A stretch of DNA of 64,000 nucleotides. Source: an uncultured virus (IMG/VR IMGVR_UViG_3300037043_000022) (Duplodnaviria > Heunggongvirae > Uroviricota > Caudoviricetes). Below are positions 316-31,819 of this stretch, in pieces (the stretch's first letter is position 1; every line of letters begins with the position of its first letter). Below the pieces are notes generated by a model. It worked only from the letters and a program-made list of their open reading frames with translations, did not search any database and was not told where the DNA came from. Made by a program: the position numbers and the translations under genes. The stretch is taken from the IMG/VR virus record IMGVR_UViG_3300037043_000022; one strand, written 5' to 3'.

Positions 316-356
316 TCAAACCAAATTGAGGGATCCAGATAAGATTGGAGAAAAGA

Positions 357-629
357 ATGAATGAAGAGAGACTGTTGGATGCAACTGAATTACGGAAATT
401 AATGCTAACTAAGGTGGTTAGTAAAATTAAGGAATTAAATGAACTCATTGAAGGAATGATGGAACAGCCAGCTGTTGAACTGAGTTACGATGAGTTGAAT
501 GAAATGCTCGATCTGTCCATTGATCATGAATGGAACAACAAACCGAAGAAGATAATCTTCAAAGCAGGTAAAGCGGCTGGATGGGTAGAATTGCGATGTC
601 CAATCAGGACAGTGATGAGAAAAGTTTAG
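357..629 (+). CDS. hypothetical protein
   Basis: GGAG RBS about 10 nt before ATG 357. Confidence 0.6.
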   Translation: MNEERLLDATELRKLMLTKVVSKIKELNELIEGMMEQPAVELSYDELNEMLDLSIDHEWNNKPKKIIFKAGKAAGWVELRCPIRTVMRKV

Positions 630-705: not shown

Positions 706-765
706 CCCGTCTGACGAGACCGAATGGTCGAAACGGGGAGAGGAACAAGCGCTCCCCGTCACGGG
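706..765 (+). ncRNA. type I hammerhead ribozyme (HHR1)
   Basis: Stem I CCCGT/ACGGG, core CTGACGA, stem II GACC-gaat-GGTC, GAAA, stem III CGGGGAG/CTCCCCG, GTC cleavage triplet (cut after 760). Confidence 0.93.
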
Positions 766-806
766 AAAAGAAACCCACCTAAAACCCCATTCTAAGGAGA
801 AAACAC

Positions 807-1004
807 ATGAGCAGATTTGCCCTGATCGTGTTCGACGGTTGTAACGGTGACCAAAACAGAGGGGTCATTTCGGACGAGAAAGCTGTCGAGACGTTGGTGA
901 ACGAGGGCAAACGCACGGAGGAAGAGTTGGAAGAATGTGAAGATGGAAGTGAAGTCATTATTGACGTTGAAGGTGACCAGCACAAACGTCTTCGCAAGCT
1001 GTGA
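807..1004 (+). CDS. small acidic hypothetical protein flanked by hammerhead ribozymes
   Basis: AAGGAG RBS; 65 aa, Glu/Asp-rich. Confidence 0.7.
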   Translation: MSRFALIVFDGCNGDQNRGVISDEKAVETLVNEGKRTEEELEECEDGSEVIIDVEGDQHKRLRKL

Positions 1005-1188
1005 CCCGCCGGAGCGAGCAAGGCGGCACGGACACCAACGGAGTGAGCAAGAACAAGTACGATCTAAGATAAAAACCCTTGAGATCACGAAAGGAGGTGC
1101 CACTTCAATTAGTTACCGATCATGTTCGACGTGAGCGGCACACGTCAAGGCCATTTAATTGCCGAACGGAATAATTGAAAGGGTAAAA

Positions 1189-1280
1189 CCCATCTGACGA
1201 GATCTTAATGATCGAAACAAGCACACCACACGGGTTATAAGGCACAGAAGTCCGCCGCCCGTTGGTGTGCTTGTAATGGG
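1189..1280 (+). ncRNA. type I hammerhead ribozyme (HHR2) with extended stem III
   Basis: Stem I CCCAT/ATGGG, CTGACGA, stem II GATC-ttaat-GATC, GAAA, stem III CAAGCACACCA/TGGTGTGCTTG, GTA triplet (cut after 1275). Confidence 0.92.
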
Positions 1281-1297
1281 CAAGGAGATTAAAATCG

Positions 1298-1360
1298 TTT
1301 TGATTGACGATGACTAGATGGTAACTAGTCGAAACGGGGAGTTCTCTCCCCGTCATGGGA
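1298..1360 (+). ncRNA. degenerate hammerhead-like motif (HHR3)
   Basis: TTGACGA variant core, stem II GACTAG/CTAGTC, GAAA, stem III CGGGGAG/CTCCCCG (same arms as HHR1), GTC then ATGGG; stem I pairs poorly. Confidence 0.55.
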
Positions 1361-1390: not shown

Positions 1391-1936
1391 ATGCACTGGA
1401 TGATAGACATAACTAAAGAGCAATTAGCTGACGTGCTTCAAGCCTGTCGTTCATTGGAAACGGTAAATTTGGCATTCAGCGGTGATTTGCCACCAGAAAC
1501 AATTATTGAGCTGTTATTGAACAATAAAGTAAATTTATCTGGTATCATCGGACAATTAGATAAGCAATTTCTATCTATATGTATGGCAGCAGTGCAACAG
1601 AATGGTTATGCACTTAAGTACATTAAAAATCAGACGCCAGAAATCTGTCTGGCGGCAGTAAAACAAAATGGTTGGGCACTTAAATATGTCAGGGAACAGA
1701 CACCAGAAATATATATGGCAGCAGTAAAACGAGATGGTTATGCACTTCACTTTATTAAAGAACAAACACCAGACATATGTTTAGCAGCAGTACAACGAAA
1801 TGGTCAGGCACTTCAACATGTTAAAAAACAAACACCTGAAATATGCATGGCAGCAGTACAACAAGATTGCCATGCACTTAATCTTGTTAGGGATCCAGCC
1901 ATTAAATGGGAGATAGAACGTGCATTGGCTCTCTGA
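1391..1936 (+). CDS. DUF4116-type 22-aa repeat protein with MHW leader
   Basis: EQTPEICxAAVxxNGxALxYVK repeats; MHWMIDITKEQLADV N-terminus. Confidence 0.85.
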   Translation: MHWMIDITKEQLADVLQACRSLETVNLAFSGDLPPETIIELLLNNKVNLSGIIGQLDKQFLSICMAAVQQNGYALKYIKNQTPEICLAAVKQNGWALKYVREQTPEIYMAAVKRDGYALHFIKEQTPDICLAAVQRNGQALQHVKKQTPEICMAAVQQDCHALNLVRDPAIKWEIERALAL

Positions 1937-2456
1937 GGTGACTAAAGAACAATTAGCTGACGTGATTAAAGCCTATCATTCATCCTTTGGGCTACTGAAT
2001 CAGAAGGAACCAGAAATAATTATTGATATGTTATTAAATGATGAAATAAACTTATGTGACATCATCAAACATTTAAATAAACAATTTCCAGCTATATGTC
2101 TGGCGGCAGTACAACAGTATAATTGGGCACTACAATATGTTAAGGAACAAACGCCAGAAATGTGTATGACAGCAGTACAGCAGAATGGTTGGGCACTTCG
2201 ATATGTCAAAAAACAGACACTAGAGATGTGTATGACAGCAATACAAGAAAGTGGCCATGTGCTTCAATGTGTCAAGGAACAAACGCCAGAAATCTGTATG
2301 GCAGCAATACAACAACAATGGGGTTGGGCACTACAATATGTCAAAGAACAGACGCCAGAAATATGTATGACATCAGTACAACGAGATAAGGATACACTTC
2401 AATTTGTTAGAAACCCAACTCTTAGAGAGGAGATAAAACGTGCATTGGCTCTCTGA
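1920..2456 (+). CDS. DUF4116-type repeat protein with MHW leader
   Basis: GTG start, MHWLSEVTKEQLADV leader, repeats. Confidence 0.85.
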   Translation: MHWLSEVTKEQLADVIKAYHSSFGLLNQKEPEIIIDMLLNDEINLCDIIKHLNKQFPAICLAAVQQYNWALQYVKEQTPEMCMTAVQQNGWALRYVKKQTLEMCMTAIQESGHVLQCVKEQTPEICMAAIQQQWGWALQYVKEQTPEICMTSVQRDKDTLQFVRNPTLREEIKRALAL

Positions 2457-3665: not shown

Positions 3666-4151
3666 ATGACGCTAATCGAATTATTGACGATGGCGGACAA
3701 AGAAACCATCGATGACATATTGCAAGCTGCACATAAGATCAATAAAAATTGGGCAAGATATAAAGATGAAACGATTATCAAGAAATTATGTAATGATGGA
3801 ATTAGGGCAGGATATGAAGAAGTATCGATGTTCTTATCAGAACTTCGAAAACCGGAAAAATTCGCCCATGTTAGATTTAAAGTGCCGTTCAGTACGGCCA
3901 TGGTTCCAGCATTGACGCTTGTGATACGTGATGGCTACTTCTATAATAGAATGGTTGATAAACAAATAAAATTGGTAGAAAAATTGCTGATGGGTGGGGC
4001 AGACCCTCATGAGACATGCGAAATTGAAGGCTGGACTCCTATGAAATTCGCAAAGAACCTCAACGATAGTGACATAATCAACATGTTAGAAAATCAAGAA
4101 AGGAATTTAAATGCACTGGATGACGACCGTAACCAAAGAACAGTTAGCTGA
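3666..4151 (+). CDS. leader-domain protein with ankyrin-like C-terminus
   Basis: ADKETIDDILQAAHKINKNWARYKDETIIKKL resembles the DUF4116 leader; LLMGGADPH...GWTPMKFA is ankyrin-like. Confidence 0.65.
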   Translation: MTLIELLTMADKETIDDILQAAHKINKNWARYKDETIIKKLCNDGIRAGYEEVSMFLSELRKPEKFAHVRFKVPFSTAMVPALTLVIRDGYFYNRMVDKQIKLVEKLLMGGADPHETCEIEGWTPMKFAKNLNDSDIINMLENQERNLNALDDDRNQRTVS

Positions 4152-4905
4152 CGTAATCCGAGCAGTGAGAAAGACTGATAGCAATTATAAACAGATGAAG
4201 GATGAAGTGATTATTGAGATACTATTGACTCGCCCCGTCCGCGCTCCGTCCCTACGCGGGTATGGGCCCAAATCGCTGCCAAGCGGTGATGCACTAAAAC
4301 ATTTAAACAAGCAATTTCCAGAAATATGTATGGCAGCAGTGCAAGAAGATGGTTATGCACTTGAATATGTCAAGGAGCAGACGCCAGAAATCTGCATGGC
4401 GGCAGTAAAACAAAATGGTGGTGCACTTAAACATGTCAAATGTTCTGCGAACAACAAAGAGCAGACGCTAGAAATATGCATGGCAGCAGTAAGACAAAAT
4501 AGTCATGCACTTCAGCATGTCAAAAAACAAACACCAGAAATATGTATAGCAGCAGTACAACGACATGGTTCGGCACTTGAATATGTTAAGGAACAAACGC
4601 CAGAAATGTGTATGGCAGCAGTGCAGCAGAATAGCAATGCACTTGAACATGTCAAATGTTCTGCGAACAACAAAGAACAGACACCAGAAATCTGTATGGC
4701 AGCAGTAAAAGGTAATGGTTTGGTACTTCAATTTGTCAAGGAACAGACGCCAGAATTGTGCATGGCAGCGGTACAACGAAATGGTCATGCACTTGAATAT
4801 GTCAAGGAGCAGACACCAGAGATATGTACGGCAGCAGTGCAGCAAGATGGTGAAGCACTTGAATATGTTAACAAAAAATTCAAGATCAAGATTGTTGAGG
4901 GGTGA
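4111..4905 (+). CDS. DUF4116-type repeat protein with MHW leader (two CSANNK inserts)
   Basis: Leader plus about 8 repeats. Confidence 0.85.
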   Translation: MHWMTTVTKEQLADVIRAVRKTDSNYKQMKDEVIIEILLTRPVRAPSLRGYGPKSLPSGDALKHLNKQFPEICMAAVQEDGYALEYVKEQTPEICMAAVKQNGGALKHVKCSANNKEQTLEICMAAVRQNSHALQHVKKQTPEICIAAVQRHGSALEYVKEQTPEMCMAAVQQNSNALEHVKCSANNKEQTPEICMAAVKGNGLVLQFVKEQTPELCMAAVQRNGHALEYVKEQTPEICTAAVQQDGEALEYVNKKFKIKIVEG

Positions 4906-5830: not shown

Positions 5831-6640
5831 TTGGCGGCATTTCGCCGTGCCAGTCTGGTACTTAAATTTCTGAAGAAGCCACGATGAAACGCGGTAGGGT
5901 GCTGCAATTGTGAGAGGAGATAAGATGACGACCACAAACAAGGAACTGGCAGCGGTACAACGAAATGGTTGGGCACTTGAATATGTTAAGGAACAGACAC
6001 CAGAATTGTGTCTGGCAGCAGTGCAACAAAATGGTTCGGCACTTGAATATGTCAAGGAACAAACACCAGAATTATGCATGGCAGCAGTGCAACAGGATGG
6101 TCGGGCACTTGAATATGTCAAAAAACAGACGCCGGAATTATGCATGGCAGCAGTGCAACAGGATGGTCGGGCACTTGAATATGTTAAGAAACCGCCAGAA
6201 TTATGTATGGCAGCAGTGCAACAAGATGGGCGAGCGCTTGAATTTGTTGAAGAGCAGACACCAGAAATATGCATAGCAGCAGTACAACAACATGGTCTGG
6301 CACTCCAACATGTCAAGGAACAGACGCCAGAAATATGCCTGGCAGCAGTAAAACAACATAATTGGGCATTACAGTATGTTAAGGAGCAGACACCAGAAAT
6401 ATGTATGGCAGCGGTACAACGAAATGGTTGGGCACTTGAATATGTCGAAGAACAAACACCAGAAATATGTATGGCGGCAGCACAACAAAATGGTGGTGCA
6501 TTTGAATATGTCGAAGAACAGACGTTGGCGGCATTTCGTCGTGCCAGTCTGGTACTTCTTGAGGGACTAAACCAATCTGAAGAAGCCACGATGAAACGCG
6601 GTAGGGTGCTACAATTGTGAGAGGAGATGGATGACAACCA
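5823..6640 (+). repeat. ~110-bp direct repeats (5823-5933 and 6517-6640) flanking a DUF4116 repeat block
   Basis: aacagacgttggcggcatttcg...atgaaacgcggtagggtgct.caattgtgagaggagat occurs twice. Confidence 0.9.
5925..6620 (+). CDS. leaderless DUF4116-type repeat protein
   Basis: About 9 repeats, no MHW leader, ends KRGRVLQL. Confidence 0.75.
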   Translation: MTTTNKELAAVQRNGWALEYVKEQTPELCLAAVQQNGSALEYVKEQTPELCMAAVQQDGRALEYVKKQTPELCMAAVQQDGRALEYVKKPPELCMAAVQQDGRALEFVEEQTPEICIAAVQQHGLALQHVKEQTPEICLAAVKQHNWALQYVKEQTPEICMAAVQRNGWALEYVEEQTPEICMAAAQQNGGAFEYVEEQTLAAFRRASLVLLEGLNQSEEATMKRGRVLQL

Positions 6641-12128: not shown

Positions 12129-12788
12129 ATGCACTGGATGACGAACGCAAGTAAGGAACAATTGAATGATGTGATTGAAGCAGTGAGAAAGTTTGATGGC
12201 AATTATAAACAGATGAAGGACGAAACGATCGTTAAGAAATTATTGGATGATGAGATTCGGGTTTTAAGTGATGTGCTTAAACATTTAGACAATCAATTTC
12301 CAGCCATATGCCTGGCAGCAGTACAACAATGGGGTCATGTACTTGTATATGTCAAGGAACAGACACCAGAAATATGCATGGCGGCAGTACGACAAAATGG
12401 TGCAGCACTTGAACACGTCAAGGAACAAACACCAGAAATATGCATGGCAGCAGTACAACAAGATAATGATGCACTTAAATATGTCAAGGAACAGACGCCA
12501 GAAATATGTATGGCAGTAGTACAACAATGGGGTTGGGTACTTGTATATGTCAAAAAACAGACGCCAGAAATATGCCTGGCAGCAGTACAACAAGATGGTG
12601 ATGCACTTCGGTTTGTCAAAAAACAGACGCCAGAAATATGCATGGCCGCAGTACGACAAAATGGTGCAGCACTTGAATATGTCAAAGAACAGACGCCAGA
12701 AATATGCATGGCAGCGGTAAGACAAAATGGTGATGCACTTAAATATGTTGATAGGAAATTCAAGACCAAGATCTGCATTCTGGCATAG
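12129..12788 (+). CDS. DUF4116-type repeat protein with MHW leader
   Basis: Leader plus about 7 repeats. Confidence 0.87.
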   Translation: MHWMTNASKEQLNDVIEAVRKFDGNYKQMKDETIVKKLLDDEIRVLSDVLKHLDNQFPAICLAAVQQWGHVLVYVKEQTPEICMAAVRQNGAALEHVKEQTPEICMAAVQQDNDALKYVKEQTPEICMAVVQQWGWVLVYVKKQTPEICLAAVQQDGDALRFVKKQTPEICMAAVRQNGAALEYVKEQTPEICMAAVRQNGDALKYVDRKFKTKICILA

Positions 12789-12798
12789 GAGATAAAAC

Positions 12799-13410
12799 GT
12801 GCACTGGATGACGAACGCAAGCAAGAAACAAATAAGCGACGTAATTCAAGTAGTGCAGAAGATTGACGATTATAAACAGATGAAGGATGAAACGATTGTA
12901 GAGAGATTGTTGAACAATGAAATAAGCTTGTGGGGCGTACTCCATGATTTGGGCGATCAATTTCCTGAAATATGCATGGCAGCAGTACAACGAAATGGTT
13001 ATACAATTAAATTCGTCAAAGATCAGACGCCAGAGATATGTCTGGCGGCAGTAAAACAAAATGGTCAGGCGCTTGAATATGTAAAAAAGCAGACGCCGGA
13101 AATATGTATGGCAGCAGTAAAAGAAAATGGTTGGGCACTTCGATATGTCAAAAAACAGACACCTGAAATATGTCTGGCGGCAGTAAAACAAAATGGTCAG
13201 GCGCTTGAATATGTAAAAAAGCAGACGCCGGAAATATGTCTGGCAGCAGTGCAGAAATGCGGGATGGCGCTTGAATTTGTTAAAAAGCAGACGTTGGAAA
13301 TTTGCACTGCAGCGATTGATGCAGCAATTGCAGCAAATATGACGGAGGTAATAGATTTTGTCGATACAACTAAATTTGAAATAGAATCACTTTCCATAAA
13401 GAAGAAGTAG
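12799..13410 (+). CDS. DUF4116-type repeat protein with MHW leader
   Basis: GTG start, leader plus about 5 repeats. Confidence 0.87.
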   Translation: MHWMTNASKKQISDVIQVVQKIDDYKQMKDETIVERLLNNEISLWGVLHDLGDQFPEICMAAVQRNGYTIKFVKDQTPEICLAAVKQNGQALEYVKKQTPEICMAAVKENGWALRYVKKQTPEICLAAVKQNGQALEYVKKQTPEICLAAVQKCGMALEFVKKQTLEICTAAIDAAIAANMTEVIDFVDTTKFEIESLSIKKK

Positions 13411-26177: not shown

Positions 26178-26397
26178 GATTGATAAGAAGAACGTCATGC
26201 TCGCTGAATTGAAAAAGATTGACGTTCTTGGTGACGATCCGGTTGATTCCCTGGAATCATTGCCAGGCAATCAGTATCATCAGTTGACGTATCGACTCGC
26301 TAGAAAGACCGGATTTTCATATGATGAAATCACGGGATTGTTGGACGAACTGCGTGAAGAGCATGAGACGAAAGAATCTAAGGAGACTGAAGAATGA
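26170..26397 (+). CDS. small hypothetical protein sharing its RBS/start sequence with the ligase
   Basis: ggagacagaatgactaagattgat versus ggagactgaagaatgaccaagattgat. Confidence 0.55.
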   Translation: MTKIDKKNVMLAELKKIDVLGDDPVDSLESLPGNQYHQLTYRLARKTGFSYDEITGLLDELREEHETKESKETEE

Positions 26398-28316
26398 CCA
26401 AGATTGATGCGCTCAAGAAGGCTGCCGAAGCTTACTACAATGACAAAGCAGTCATGTCAGACGCCGATTACGACCGTCTGTATGACGAGGCGAAGGCTGA
26501 ACATCCCAACGACCCGTTCTTTAAAACGGTTGGGGCACCAGTCTCCGACCTCTTTACCAAGATCAAGCATAGCATCCCAATGGGCAGTCTCAACAAAGTC
26601 AAGGATGAGAAAGAAATCAAGCGCTGGTTGGACAAAACCCCTGGTACGAAAATTCTCGTCCAATGGAAGTTCGACGGCTGCTCATTGTCTCTTAAATACG
26701 AGAAGGGACAACTGGTACAGGCCATCAGTCGTGGGGATGGAAATACCGGCGAGGACCTGACCGAAAACGTCAAGAAATCCAAATTCATTCCCCAACGGTT
26801 GAATGAAGAATTCACCGGTTACGTACGTGGTGAGGCAATTCTCCACCAAGACGAATTTAAAACGCATTTCGCCGATTGTGCCAATCCCCGCAATGCCGGT
26901 AACGGTGCATTGCGCAACAAACGCGGTGATGGTTGTGAATGGTTGCGTCTAAAGGCATACGACGTGCTGTGCGACGGTGAATCATGCTGCGACACCGAAC
27001 GGGATAACCAACAATATCTCGCTCGATTGGGATTCGACGTCGATGAGGGCGCATTGGTTACTGGCGCAGACACATTGGGTCTGATACAAACCGTCTATGA
27101 CAAACGACGTAACGAACGGGCCACACTGCCGTTCGAAGTGGATGGATTGGTGCTGCGGTTTGACGACATTGCAACGCAAAAGGCACTTGGGTTTCATGAC
27201 CAGAACCCCAAGGGTCAAATGGCTTACAAATTCCCACCGATGGGCGGAAAATCAATTCTACGTTCCATCGAATGGTCGGTAGGTCACACCGGCAGCATCG
27301 TCCCCGTTGGTAAAATTGACCCGATCAACATTGGCGGCGTAACCGTCACTTCCGTCTTAGTCAACAATGAAGATGAGATTAAGCGTCTCAATTTAGGGAT
27401 CGGCGGTGAGGTCGAAGTCATCAGAGCAGGGGATGTGATCCCTAAGTTAGTATCCTGTAAGGGTGGTACGCCAATTACAATCCCAACGGTCTGTCCAGTC
27501 TGTGGCGGTGCGGTGGCTCGCGATGGTGCAGCATTGGTTTGTCAAAATGACGAGTGCGACGGTAAGGCCGTCCGTAAAGTCCGTCGCTGGATTAAGTCGA
27601 ACGACATCAAGTTCATCGGTCCGGAAGTGGAAGCGGCGTTGTATGAATCCGGTCTGGTTAAAGACCCAGCCGATCTCTACGTCCTCGACATGGAAAGGTT
27701 GCCGAATCTGACCGTCGGCAACGGCAATCTCGGCATCAAACGAGCACAAGCAATTCTTGCTGAGATTGAGAAGAAAAAGAATTTGACCTTGGCCGAATTC
27801 ATTGGCTCATTGGGCATCCGCTTCCTAGGTAAACGGGCGGCGGAAGAGTTCATCAAGAAATGCGGCAAGAAGACGCTCAGGGAATGGCGTGAGATGACGA
27901 CGGAAGAATCGCTTGCGCTCGGCAGCGGCATTGGTCCTGTCGTCGTGGCCGGACTGGCGGCGTGTAGCGGACTCGTCGACAAACTGCTGGCAAACGGCGT
28001 GGTCGTCGGTGACGCGGACGACGCGGCGGAGGAGACGCCGGCGGCGACGAGCGGCGGGAAACTGGCGAATCTCGTCATGGTGTTTACGGGAGCGTTGCCG
28101 TCGGGTATGAAACGGGCAGCGGCGCAGCAATTGGTCCTTGAAAACGGTGGGGCGGTGAAGGATGAAGTCGGTCCAACGGTGACCCACTTGGTGCAAGCGG
28201 ACCCGTCAAGCCAATCATCTAAAACCCGCAAGGCCGCAAAATACGGCACAAAAGTGATTAGTGAGGAGCAATTTCTGGAGATGATCAAATTGTCCAGCGC
28301 TGCAGAGTACACTTGA
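26394..28316 (+). CDS. ligA: NAD-dependent DNA ligase
   Basis: YY...MSDADYD domain Ia, KFDG adenylation motif, SRGDG, VRGE, ANPRN, DGLV, AYKF, RAGDVIP, C4 Zn finger, HhH, C-terminal BRCT (VFTG...ISEEQFL). Confidence 0.95.
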   Translation: MTKIDALKKAAEAYYNDKAVMSDADYDRLYDEAKAEHPNDPFFKTVGAPVSDLFTKIKHSIPMGSLNKVKDEKEIKRWLDKTPGTKILVQWKFDGCSLSLKYEKGQLVQAISRGDGNTGEDLTENVKKSKFIPQRLNEEFTGYVRGEAILHQDEFKTHFADCANPRNAGNGALRNKRGDGCEWLRLKAYDVLCDGESCCDTERDNQQYLARLGFDVDEGALVTGADTLGLIQTVYDKRRNERATLPFEVDGLVLRFDDIATQKALGFHDQNPKGQMAYKFPPMGGKSILRSIEWSVGHTGSIVPVGKIDPINIGGVTVTSVLVNNEDEIKRLNLGIGGEVEVIRAGDVIPKLVSCKGGTPITIPTVCPVCGGAVARDGAALVCQNDECDGKAVRKVRRWIKSNDIKFIGPEVEAALYESGLVKDPADLYVLDMERLPNLTVGNGNLGIKRAQAILAEIEKKKNLTLAEFIGSLGIRFLGKRAAEEFIKKCGKKTLREWREMTTEESLALGSGIGPVVVAGLAACSGLVDKLLANGVVVGDADDAAEETPAATSGGKLANLVMVFTGALPSGMKRAAAQQLVLENGGAVKDEVGPTVTHLVQADPSSQSSKTRKAAKYGTKVISEEQFLEMIKLSSAAEYT

Positions 28317-31198: not shown

Positions 31199-31819
31199 AT
31201 GTTTAGAAGATACTGTGACGACTGCGTAAGGCGGCTCCCGAATTGTCTGAATGAATTTGAAGAAGGAAAATATTCTGCAGAATTCAAGGCAGATGGTTAC
31301 AGGGTTCATTTGGAATTTACTGATCATGGCATCGTGCCATGGTCCAGAAAGTGGAAAAAGCACCCAATCTCAAAGGAGATGGCGACACTCTTAAAAGAAA
31401 AATTAAGCTTTCCACGCGGCACGATTCTAGATGGAGAATGGCTCGAACGTCGTACGGTTGGACCGGAAACGATCATTCTGTGGGATGCAATGTTCCATGC
31501 CGGTGAATGGTTGGGTGGGATGACATACGCAGAAAGAATGAATTTCCTTGATTGCGTGCCAAACGTCTGGAATGACGACACGCTGAAGAATTTTTCGACG
31601 TTGCCTGGCCCAATATTGACGGTGACGCATCGAACGCGTAAAAGTTTTGTTGAAGCGTTCGAATTGTCGAAATCGCTCCCATGGACGGAAGGATTGGTCA
31701 TCAAAGCATTAGATTCAACGTTGGTCGGTTCGATCAAAGAACGAACGGTCAACTATGCTTGGACCAAATGTAAATGGCGCGGCGGATCCGATGGCAACAA
31801 AATGGGCGTACAAACGTAA
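31199..31819 (+). CDS. stand-alone ATP-dependent ligase/capping-type adenylation domain
   Basis: KADG (motif I), ILDGE (III), LWD (IIIa), EGLVIK (IV), WTKCK (V); no OB-fold follows. Confidence 0.8.
   Translation: MFRRYCDDCVRRLPNCLNEFEEGKYSAEFKADGYRVHLEFTDHGIVPWSRKWKKHPISKEMATLLKEKLSFPRGTILDGEWLERRTVGPETIILWDAMFHAGEWLGGMTYAERMNFLDCVPNVWNDDTLKNFSTLPGPILTVTHRTRKSFVEAFELSKSLPWTEGLVIKALDSTLVGSIKERTVNYAWTKCKWRGGSDGNKMGVQT

Follow-up and report, generated by a model that had tools for sequence, protein, structure and literature searches.

Multiple hammerhead ribozymes flanking single genes or short gene blocks were described in prophages by Perreault et al. in 2011 (PMC3088659), and three such arrangements were found to cut. 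A pseudoknot between loop II and the flank was needed for speed, as judged from mutation of a type II ribozyme, and was predicted for all three types; the available text of that paper also states that spliced or circular products were sought and that none were found. What hammerheads do for DNA phages has yet to be settled, as far as the accessible part of another account goes (PMC6765202).

Here, we analyzed a 64,000-nt stretch of DNA (the window), which corresponds to C1:42959-106958 (minus strand) of a 320,399-bp virus record. An earlier note on this DNA had proposed that two complete type I hammerheads in the same orientation, followed by a degenerate third, excise a 515-nt RNA with a small open reading frame (ORF), and that the pair yields either a ribozyme-processed, possibly circular, phage mRNA or a defined 5′-OH end for the downstream DUF4116 transcript. 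The array layout has already been described in phages since 2011, and this phage is another case of it: same-strand copies lie between phage genes, and the genes that they flank vary.

Hammerhead motifs and the 515-nt piece

The features of the locus are collected in Table 1. In HHR1, stem I (706–710/761–765) encloses the core CUGACGA (711–717), a 4-bp stem II (718–729), GAAA at 730–733, and an 8-bp stem III (733–759), and the GUC triplet ends at 760. HHR2 consists of stem I (1189–1193/1276–1280), the core (1194–1200), a 4-bp stem II (1201–1213), GAAA at 1214–1217, and a perfect 12-bp stem III (1217–1228/1263–1274) with an extra hairpin within it; GUA precedes the predicted cut between 1275 and 1276. 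Both motifs match CUGANGA, GAAA, and NUH with zero deviations, and in both the 5′ and 3′ ends lie in stem I, while stems II and III are closed. Folded singly, each forms the hammerhead three-way junction (z of −3.3 for HHR1 and −4.6 for HHR2), and 0 of 200 shuffles were equally stable. A strict descriptor gave six matches in the real 320-kb genome, compared to none in 18 and one in 2 of 20 shuffled genomes, and a chance origin of the motifs is therefore excluded. Cores, stems, folds, and shuffles thus agree with the claim of two complete same-strand hammerheads, and the predicted cut sites after 760 and 1275 would bound a 515-nt piece carrying a Shine-Dalgarno (SD) sequence and an ORF, as the earlier note had it.

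Table 1. Features of the locus in window coordinates.
Feature	Position	Strand	Basis or remark
Last gene of upstream piece	345-629	+	Stop 76 nt ahead of HHR1
HHR1, complete type I hammerhead	706-765	+	Predicted cut 760/761 (GUC)
Predicted released RNA, 515 nt, 5′-OH and 2′,3′-cyclic phosphate if both ribozymes cut	761-1275	+	Inferred
Candidate displaced pseudoknot partner CAUUC of HHR1 loop II (722-726)	788-792	+	5-bp match
SD AAGGAG of 65-aa ORF	794-799	+	Sequence
65-aa acidic orphan ORF within released piece	807-1004	+	ORF list
Noncoding stretch, orphan SD-like motif at 1090-1099	1005-1188	+	Structure equals shuffles (z −0.4)
HHR2, complete type I hammerhead, long stem III	1189-1280	+	Predicted cut 1275/1276 (GUA)
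Orphan SD (element 1282-1296)	1282-1287	+	ATC instead of ATG at start-codon spacing
HHR3, 5′-damaged hammerhead, same subfamily	1304-1359	+	41.2 bits with R1, outside training set
DUF4116-repeat gene, SD 1377-1385	1391-1936	+	PF13475, E 1e-33

Rfam hammerhead models, to which the earlier note had pointed (RF00163, RF03152, and others), gave no match at gathering score in the window; the top match was RAGATH-1-hammerhead on HHR1, with 26.7 bits against a gathering score of 56.3. A model, R1, was trained on 28 sequences, six of them from this genome. It scored HHR1, which was in the training set, at 46.2 bits and HHR2, which was outside it, at 30.4 bits (E 1.9e-6).

The degenerate third motif sharing the stem III arms of HHR1 was also recovered. 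HHR3 retains stem II, GAAA, stem III, and GUC followed by AUGGG; its stem III arms are common to HHR1 (families D16 and D17), and its stem II arms are shared with copy C of the array described below. Position 3 is U (or C3 is missing), and stem I cannot form. HHR3 is thus probably inactive, and since it is damaged, the transcript end at 1355 expected by the earlier note is unlikely. A rescue in which HHR3 borrows its 5′ half from HHR1 or HHR2 was inspected by eye and discarded: stable local hairpins would have to break. The distance from the HHR2 cut to the damaged HHR3 is 79 nt. In what appears to be the simplest account, HHR3 is probably a relic, and a gene between HHR2 and HHR3 would have been deleted along with the first bases of HHR3.

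The 65-aa ORF has no match in Pfam, PHROG, or NCBIfam, all its Atlas matches are below 0.8, and a protein search returned its own record only, with no relative in viral contigs. The same absence of relatives in viral contigs was found for a DUF2201 protein. A distant blastn search of 600–1450 against GenBank phages gave three matches, at chance level. RNA-library contigs cover 830–1234 and 815–1075 at depths of 3.7 and 4.4 and may stem from DNA carry-over. An anti-SD switch was considered and found unsupported, the predicted SD accessibility of the ORF at 807 being 0.56 both before and after cleavage. The gene at 1391–1936 belongs to a large paralogue expansion: at least 14 DUF4116-repeat genes lie in the window (1391-2456, 4111-4905, 5910-6620, 12129-13410, and on to 62401), with one more upstream, and many have a common N-terminal leader.

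The array, its genome, and its subfamily

Seven complete type I copies, with HHR1 and HHR2 closing the row, form an array to which HHR3 is added; all are on the + strand of the window, and none were found elsewhere in the 320 kb (one mismatch or insertion was tolerated at the base of stem II in this count). The array spans C1 105,765-120,634 and thereby takes up less than 15 kb, where a block of co-directional genes begins. In window numbering extended upstream, the cores are located at −13675 (A), −12559 (B), −10048 (C), −4885 (D), −3852 (E), 711 (HHR1), and 1194 (HHR2), so that five further complete copies lie 3.9 to 13.7 kb upstream of the window. The predicted pieces are 1111, 2513, 5166, 1028, 4566, and 515 nt long, the 515-nt RNA being the smallest. 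Stem I is CCCAU/AUGGG in six of the seven copies, and HHR1 carries a two-sided change to CCCGU/ACGGG. Pairing between loop II and the 3′ tail is copy-specific: over eight motifs with 12-nt tails, just 15 of 40,320 permutations of the partners give a sum this high, which argues that selection acts on the whole array to keep the active fold.

A clear SD followed by ATG is located 28 to 75 nt past the cut in five of the seven complete copies (A, B, D, E, and HHR1); copy C has a weak SD only, and the next gene after HHR2 is 115 nt off. In copies D and E, the UGA of the core serves as the stop codon of the upstream gene. The genes that the ribozymes flank are unrelated from locus to locus. The first two genes of the array are tandem paralogues of 68 and 77 aa (L001 16,296-16,847), with hammerhead A between them, right after the first stop. 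Hammerhead B and a 61-aa ORF lie in a segment of ~730 nt bounded by a perfect 46-nt inverted repeat (L001 15,191-15,919; C1 119,190-119,918). The deepest RNA contigs listed in both RNA runs (depths of 24 and 34) fall inside this repeat, immediately 5′ of B, where no ORF is convincing, and one RNA contig links both repeat arms. It is possible that the segment is invertible or a noncoding RNA. A 351-aa ORF with a Cys-rich N terminus and no family match runs antisense to the array between two genes (L001 4361-5413); our guess is that it may be an inserted homing-endonuclease-like gene.

The 320-kb genome encodes T4-like portal, capsid, sheath, and tube proteins (gp20, gp23, and gp19). The gene scan covered 213 ORF references, nearly all of at least 170 aa. 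From −14,100 to the end of the window, 140 of 143 SD-led ORFs are on one strand, and the array ORFs are small (median of 96 aa). A scan for sigma-70 promoters revealed no excess (26 sites compared to 32.9 expected). At Rfam gathering scores, the rest of the genome contains tmRNA and tRNA only (the tmRNA and one tRNA-Met, at C1 38,777-39,541). Searches for pistol, type II, and type III hammerheads gave no match in the genome, and the same searches matched no control genome either. The genome also encodes a full NAD-dependent DNA ligase at 26394-28316 of the window and a 425-aa protein that matches the actin-like Pfam family Volactin (E 1.5e-47, L007 8477-9751).

DNA depth is ~2.3- to 2.6-fold higher over L001 13,900-17,000 in both DNA runs, one of which (X1) may be from the source sample, and a 13-nt motif with only three occurrences in the genome is present at both edges of this stretch. 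The high-depth stretch (L001 13,796-17,079; C1 117,795-121,078) holds copies A and B, and three 24-nt repeats and a very GC-rich run are located at its left edge. It is probably a direct terminal repeat of ~3.2 kb, although the raised depth could instead come from a second, related genome in the samples. A terminal repeat would place the array at the first-injected end, comparable to the host-takeover module of SPO1. The end repeat recorded for the virus lies inside a 27-nt collagen-coding tandem repeat, and one continuous gene spans the join, so closure of the 320-kb record is plausible, not proven. Another assembly (G001) breaks off at this point too, which leaves the length of the collagen-like gene uncertain.

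When viral contigs were scanned twice with an exact pattern, 41 and 118 stretches were returned. The full type I fold was present in 106 of 153 loci, and 90 sequences were distinct after duplicates from overlapping loci were removed. The constancy of stem I in these sets is partly built in, since they were retrieved by stem I sequence. An SD and a start codon follow within 90 nt in 71 of 85 distinct members (background of 31%), and 59 of 72 have an SD-led upstream gene whose stop falls between −12 and +9 nt relative to stem I (background of 3%); in 12 of the 72, the core UGA is used as the stop. Pairing of loop II with its own tail scored above all 1000 partner shuffles, 94% of the cells in the family alignment are paired, and 13 of 17 pairs show two-sided change. 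The subfamily has a 5-bp stem I, a 6-bp stem II, often an extra base after A9, and a pseudoknot 1 to 2 nt past stem I. It is widespread (loci L016-L056 and L137-L248), and the ribozyme usually starts right at the stop codon. Several copies adjoin a gene that we take to resemble the anti-restriction protein ArdC.

The distance between neighboring copies is 279 to 6742 nt, and the genes that they flank are unrelated. Of 26 records picked by length among the 153 loci, 18 carry a single copy, as do 12 of the 18 records that are at least 90% complete, the count being confined to this subfamily; one family locus also carries a pistol ribozyme. None of seven loci tested reached an Rfam gathering score. 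By both pattern and model, the motif was absent from 22 capsid-related phage records (2 of them complete), which were the longest records of 80 loci; the sensitivity of the genome-wide model search is incomplete, as it missed HHR2 here. With 0 of 22 capsid-related records carrying it, the motif appears dispensable in this clade. A tight pattern gave no matches among metagenome contigs.

When compared to the family, HHR1 and HHR2 are atypical, and the stretch that holds them has an eroded look. Their stem II is 4 bp long, while 88 of 90 members have at least 5 bp; the loop II complement is located 22 nt (HHR1) and 7 nt (HHR2) past stem I instead of the usual 1 to 2 nt (77 of 84); and the nearest upstream stops are 76 and 184 nt away, with none adjoining. 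The putative HHR1 partner at 788–792 ends 1 nt 5′ of the SD. Its pairing with loop II is possible and could be a chance match, as 4 of 56 non-cognate comparisons with an equally large window also gave a 5-bp match. For HHR2, 1288–1292 is complementary to loop II (1205–1209) over 5 bp. Given these departures, HHR1 and HHR2 may be slow. In the energy model, the value for stem I of HHR1 drops from ~0.99 to 0.01–0.25 with 40 nt of tail, and values between 0.01 and 0.93 were obtained for stem I of HHR2; with flanks, alternative folds are often favored, for HHR1 mainly from a tail of 20 to 40 nt on; such nearest-neighbor folding ignores pseudoknots, and most other array copies likewise lose to alternative folds.

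Probable processing of a long message and competing readings

We consider it probable that the array of hammerheads processes a polycistronic, probably early, phage mRNA by co-transcriptional self-cleavage into linear units. The motifs, the array, the covariation, and the gene context are established by computation. The block would be transcribed early and as one unit, and each ribozyme would cut in cis. The downstream piece would then begin with a 5′-OH and a short leader ahead of the SD, while the upstream piece would be closed off by the stem III hairpin and bear a cyclic phosphate. A long message would in this way be converted into gene-sized or few-gene linear mRNAs with no need for a host nuclease, and stability and translation should thereby be set piece by piece.

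The one-strand array, the copy-specific pairing, the SD and start codon downstream, the stop upstream, and the varied flanking genes all support such processing, and the same layout was cut in vitro and in Escherichia coli for other phages, according to the available text of PMC3088659. Against it stand the atypical HHR1 and HHR2, the competing folds, the absence of the motif in capsid relatives, and the lack of a sigma-70 excess. The ribozyme-processed mRNA proposed in the earlier note fits as one case of the array-wide pattern but not as a purpose-built two-ribozyme cassette. In the same way, a defined 5′-OH end for the DUF4116 transcript, whose repeat gene at 1391–1936 is the first on the piece starting at 1276, agrees with the evidence only as part of that pattern.

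The array could work as proposed while HHR1 and HHR2 themselves are weak or partly active leftovers of gene loss and reshuffling, the 515-nt RNA being a minor product with no role. Their short stem II, the displaced or missing pseudoknot, and the lack of an adjoining stop point in this direction, as do the orphan SD motifs at 1090–1099 and 1282–1287, the damaged HHR3, the competing folds, and the orphan 65-aa ORF. However, the core bases and all three stems are intact in both motifs, with a two-sided change in stem I of HHR1 and a perfect 12-bp stem III in HHR2, and a 5-bp complement of loop II is present downstream of both. We regard local decay as unlikely.

In another reading, cleavage is gated by translation: the ribosome terminating on the upstream gene would cover stem I and the core, so that ribosomes would delay the cut, or the cut would free the SD. 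The stop adjoins stem I in 59 of 72 family members and coincides with the core UGA in 12 (and in copies D and E), and the putative tertiary partners of HHR1 and HHR2 each lie directly beside an SD, 788–792 ending 1 nt before that of ORF 807. Tight packing of phage genes explains this adjacency equally well, though, HHR1 and HHR2 have no adjoining stop, and the predicted accessibility of the SD of ORF 807 is unchanged by cleavage. In the available text of the mostly open-access literature searched, nothing was found on stop-codon gating of ribozymes. Translation gating seems distinctly improbable.

The retrozyme-like circle of the earlier note fared worse. In its narrow form, 761–1275 would be excised and its ends joined by RtcB of the host, or by enzymes of the phage, giving a stable circular mRNA that encodes the 65-aa protein; in a broader form, pieces of the array, including the 515-nt one, would be closed by host RtcB or by a phage OB-less ligase and a kinase to yield stable circular phage mRNAs. 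Hammerhead-type ends, with a 5′-OH and a cyclic phosphate, have the right chemistry for RtcB, which suits the host enzyme. RtcB itself, which the earlier note had suggested looking for, was not found in this genome, in 14 relatives, or in 26 subfamily-bearing records. The phage does encode an ATP-dependent ligase-like nucleotidyltransferase of 206 aa without an OB domain (31199–31819 of the window, + strand). It comes from a family common in viruses, in whose top cluster 65% of members carry PF01068 and 17% carry PF09414. For the second activity, a small protein resembling P-loop kinases is a weak candidate. Ligases of this class need a 5′-phosphate and a 3′-OH, so end healing would be required for a circle closed by the OB-less ligase. 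A PF09414 search gave no match in the genome, and a T4 Rnl1 search matched no genome at all and is hence uninformative.

The structure of the piece also argues against a circle. There are no direct repeats, and the longest stretches common to the copies are 14 to 17 nt; 761–1275 is branched rather than rod-like (57% paired, z −1.5 without HHR2); and its length of 515 nt is not a multiple of three, with no ORF spanning the junction. At the 1275-761 junction, stem I is mismatched (A·C) and the tertiary partner is non-cognate; the junction does not fold as a hammerhead, so self-ligation is unlikely, although copy-specific pseudoknots and a mismatched stem I would also make a poor chimeric ribozyme and leave a circle locked against re-cutting. 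The subfamily is mostly single-copy, the spacing of neighbors is highly variable, and 10 of 23 family neighbor junctions are mismatched. No 1275→761 back-junction was present in two RNA assemblies of depth ~4, a weak argument, as contigs drop rare forms. Circles sought in the similar arrays of Perreault et al. (PMC3088659) were not found there, and the accessible text of the mostly open-access literature searched yielded nothing on DNA phages that make circular mRNA by means of ribozyme pairs. We hold closure of the 515-nt piece to be very improbable, and closure across the array no less so. If circles did form, the early messages of a DNA phage would be circular and exonuclease-proof.

Comparison with known systems

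To a specialist, the layout is no surprise. Its value is that of a natural series: seven copies with one stem I, their own pseudoknots, and different genes at what is apparently the first-injected end. A curated model of the subfamily would be useful, since it is common in viral contigs yet falls below Rfam thresholds. Cloned cassettes are the only route to test the array, because the phage is uncultured.

Early transcripts of T7 are processed by RNase III. In the host-takeover module of SPO1, this enzyme cuts, at structured sites, the long early message that a terminal cluster of small genes produces, as described in the available text of PMC3896407. Unlike there, the RNA itself would cut here, leaving 5′-OH and cyclic phosphate ends, and the early timing and terminal position of our array are inferred. 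The ribozyme just before a ribosome-binding site that fixes the 5′ leader in RiboJ-type insulators is another parallel; stability was raised there (accessible part of PMC7536230). Those insulators are engineered, while the arrangement here is natural, and the effect of a 5′-OH depends on the nucleases of the host.

Retrozymes (Cervera et al., 2016, PMC4918200) likewise have two same-orientation hammerheads a few hundred bases apart. As far as the available text of that paper allows the comparison, our locus differs in having no ~350-bp LTRs, a coding insert (the SD-led 65-aa ORF), ribozymes of differing sequence, a DNA phage as host, and a pair that lies inside a longer array. Tandem ribozyme pairs of totiviruses, which resemble Zetaviruses, also surround a short ORF-bearing RNA, and their type I hammerheads lie in leaders ahead of ORFs, as here (PMC13725137, accessible part). 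The totivirus segments are 186 to 399 nt long, rod-like, a multiple of three, and stop-free; 761–1275 is none of these.

The closest relatives of the locus are the arrays of Perreault et al. (PMC3088659). The arrangements tested there were triple, whereas seven complete type I copies are present here in a jumbo T4-like phage, and the near-invariant 5-bp stem I and the scores below all Rfam gathering thresholds also set our copies apart. Shared features are same-orientation hammerheads between varying genes, the pseudoknot between loop II and the flank, the U10.1-U11.1 variant, seen here in copy E, and the same proposed role.
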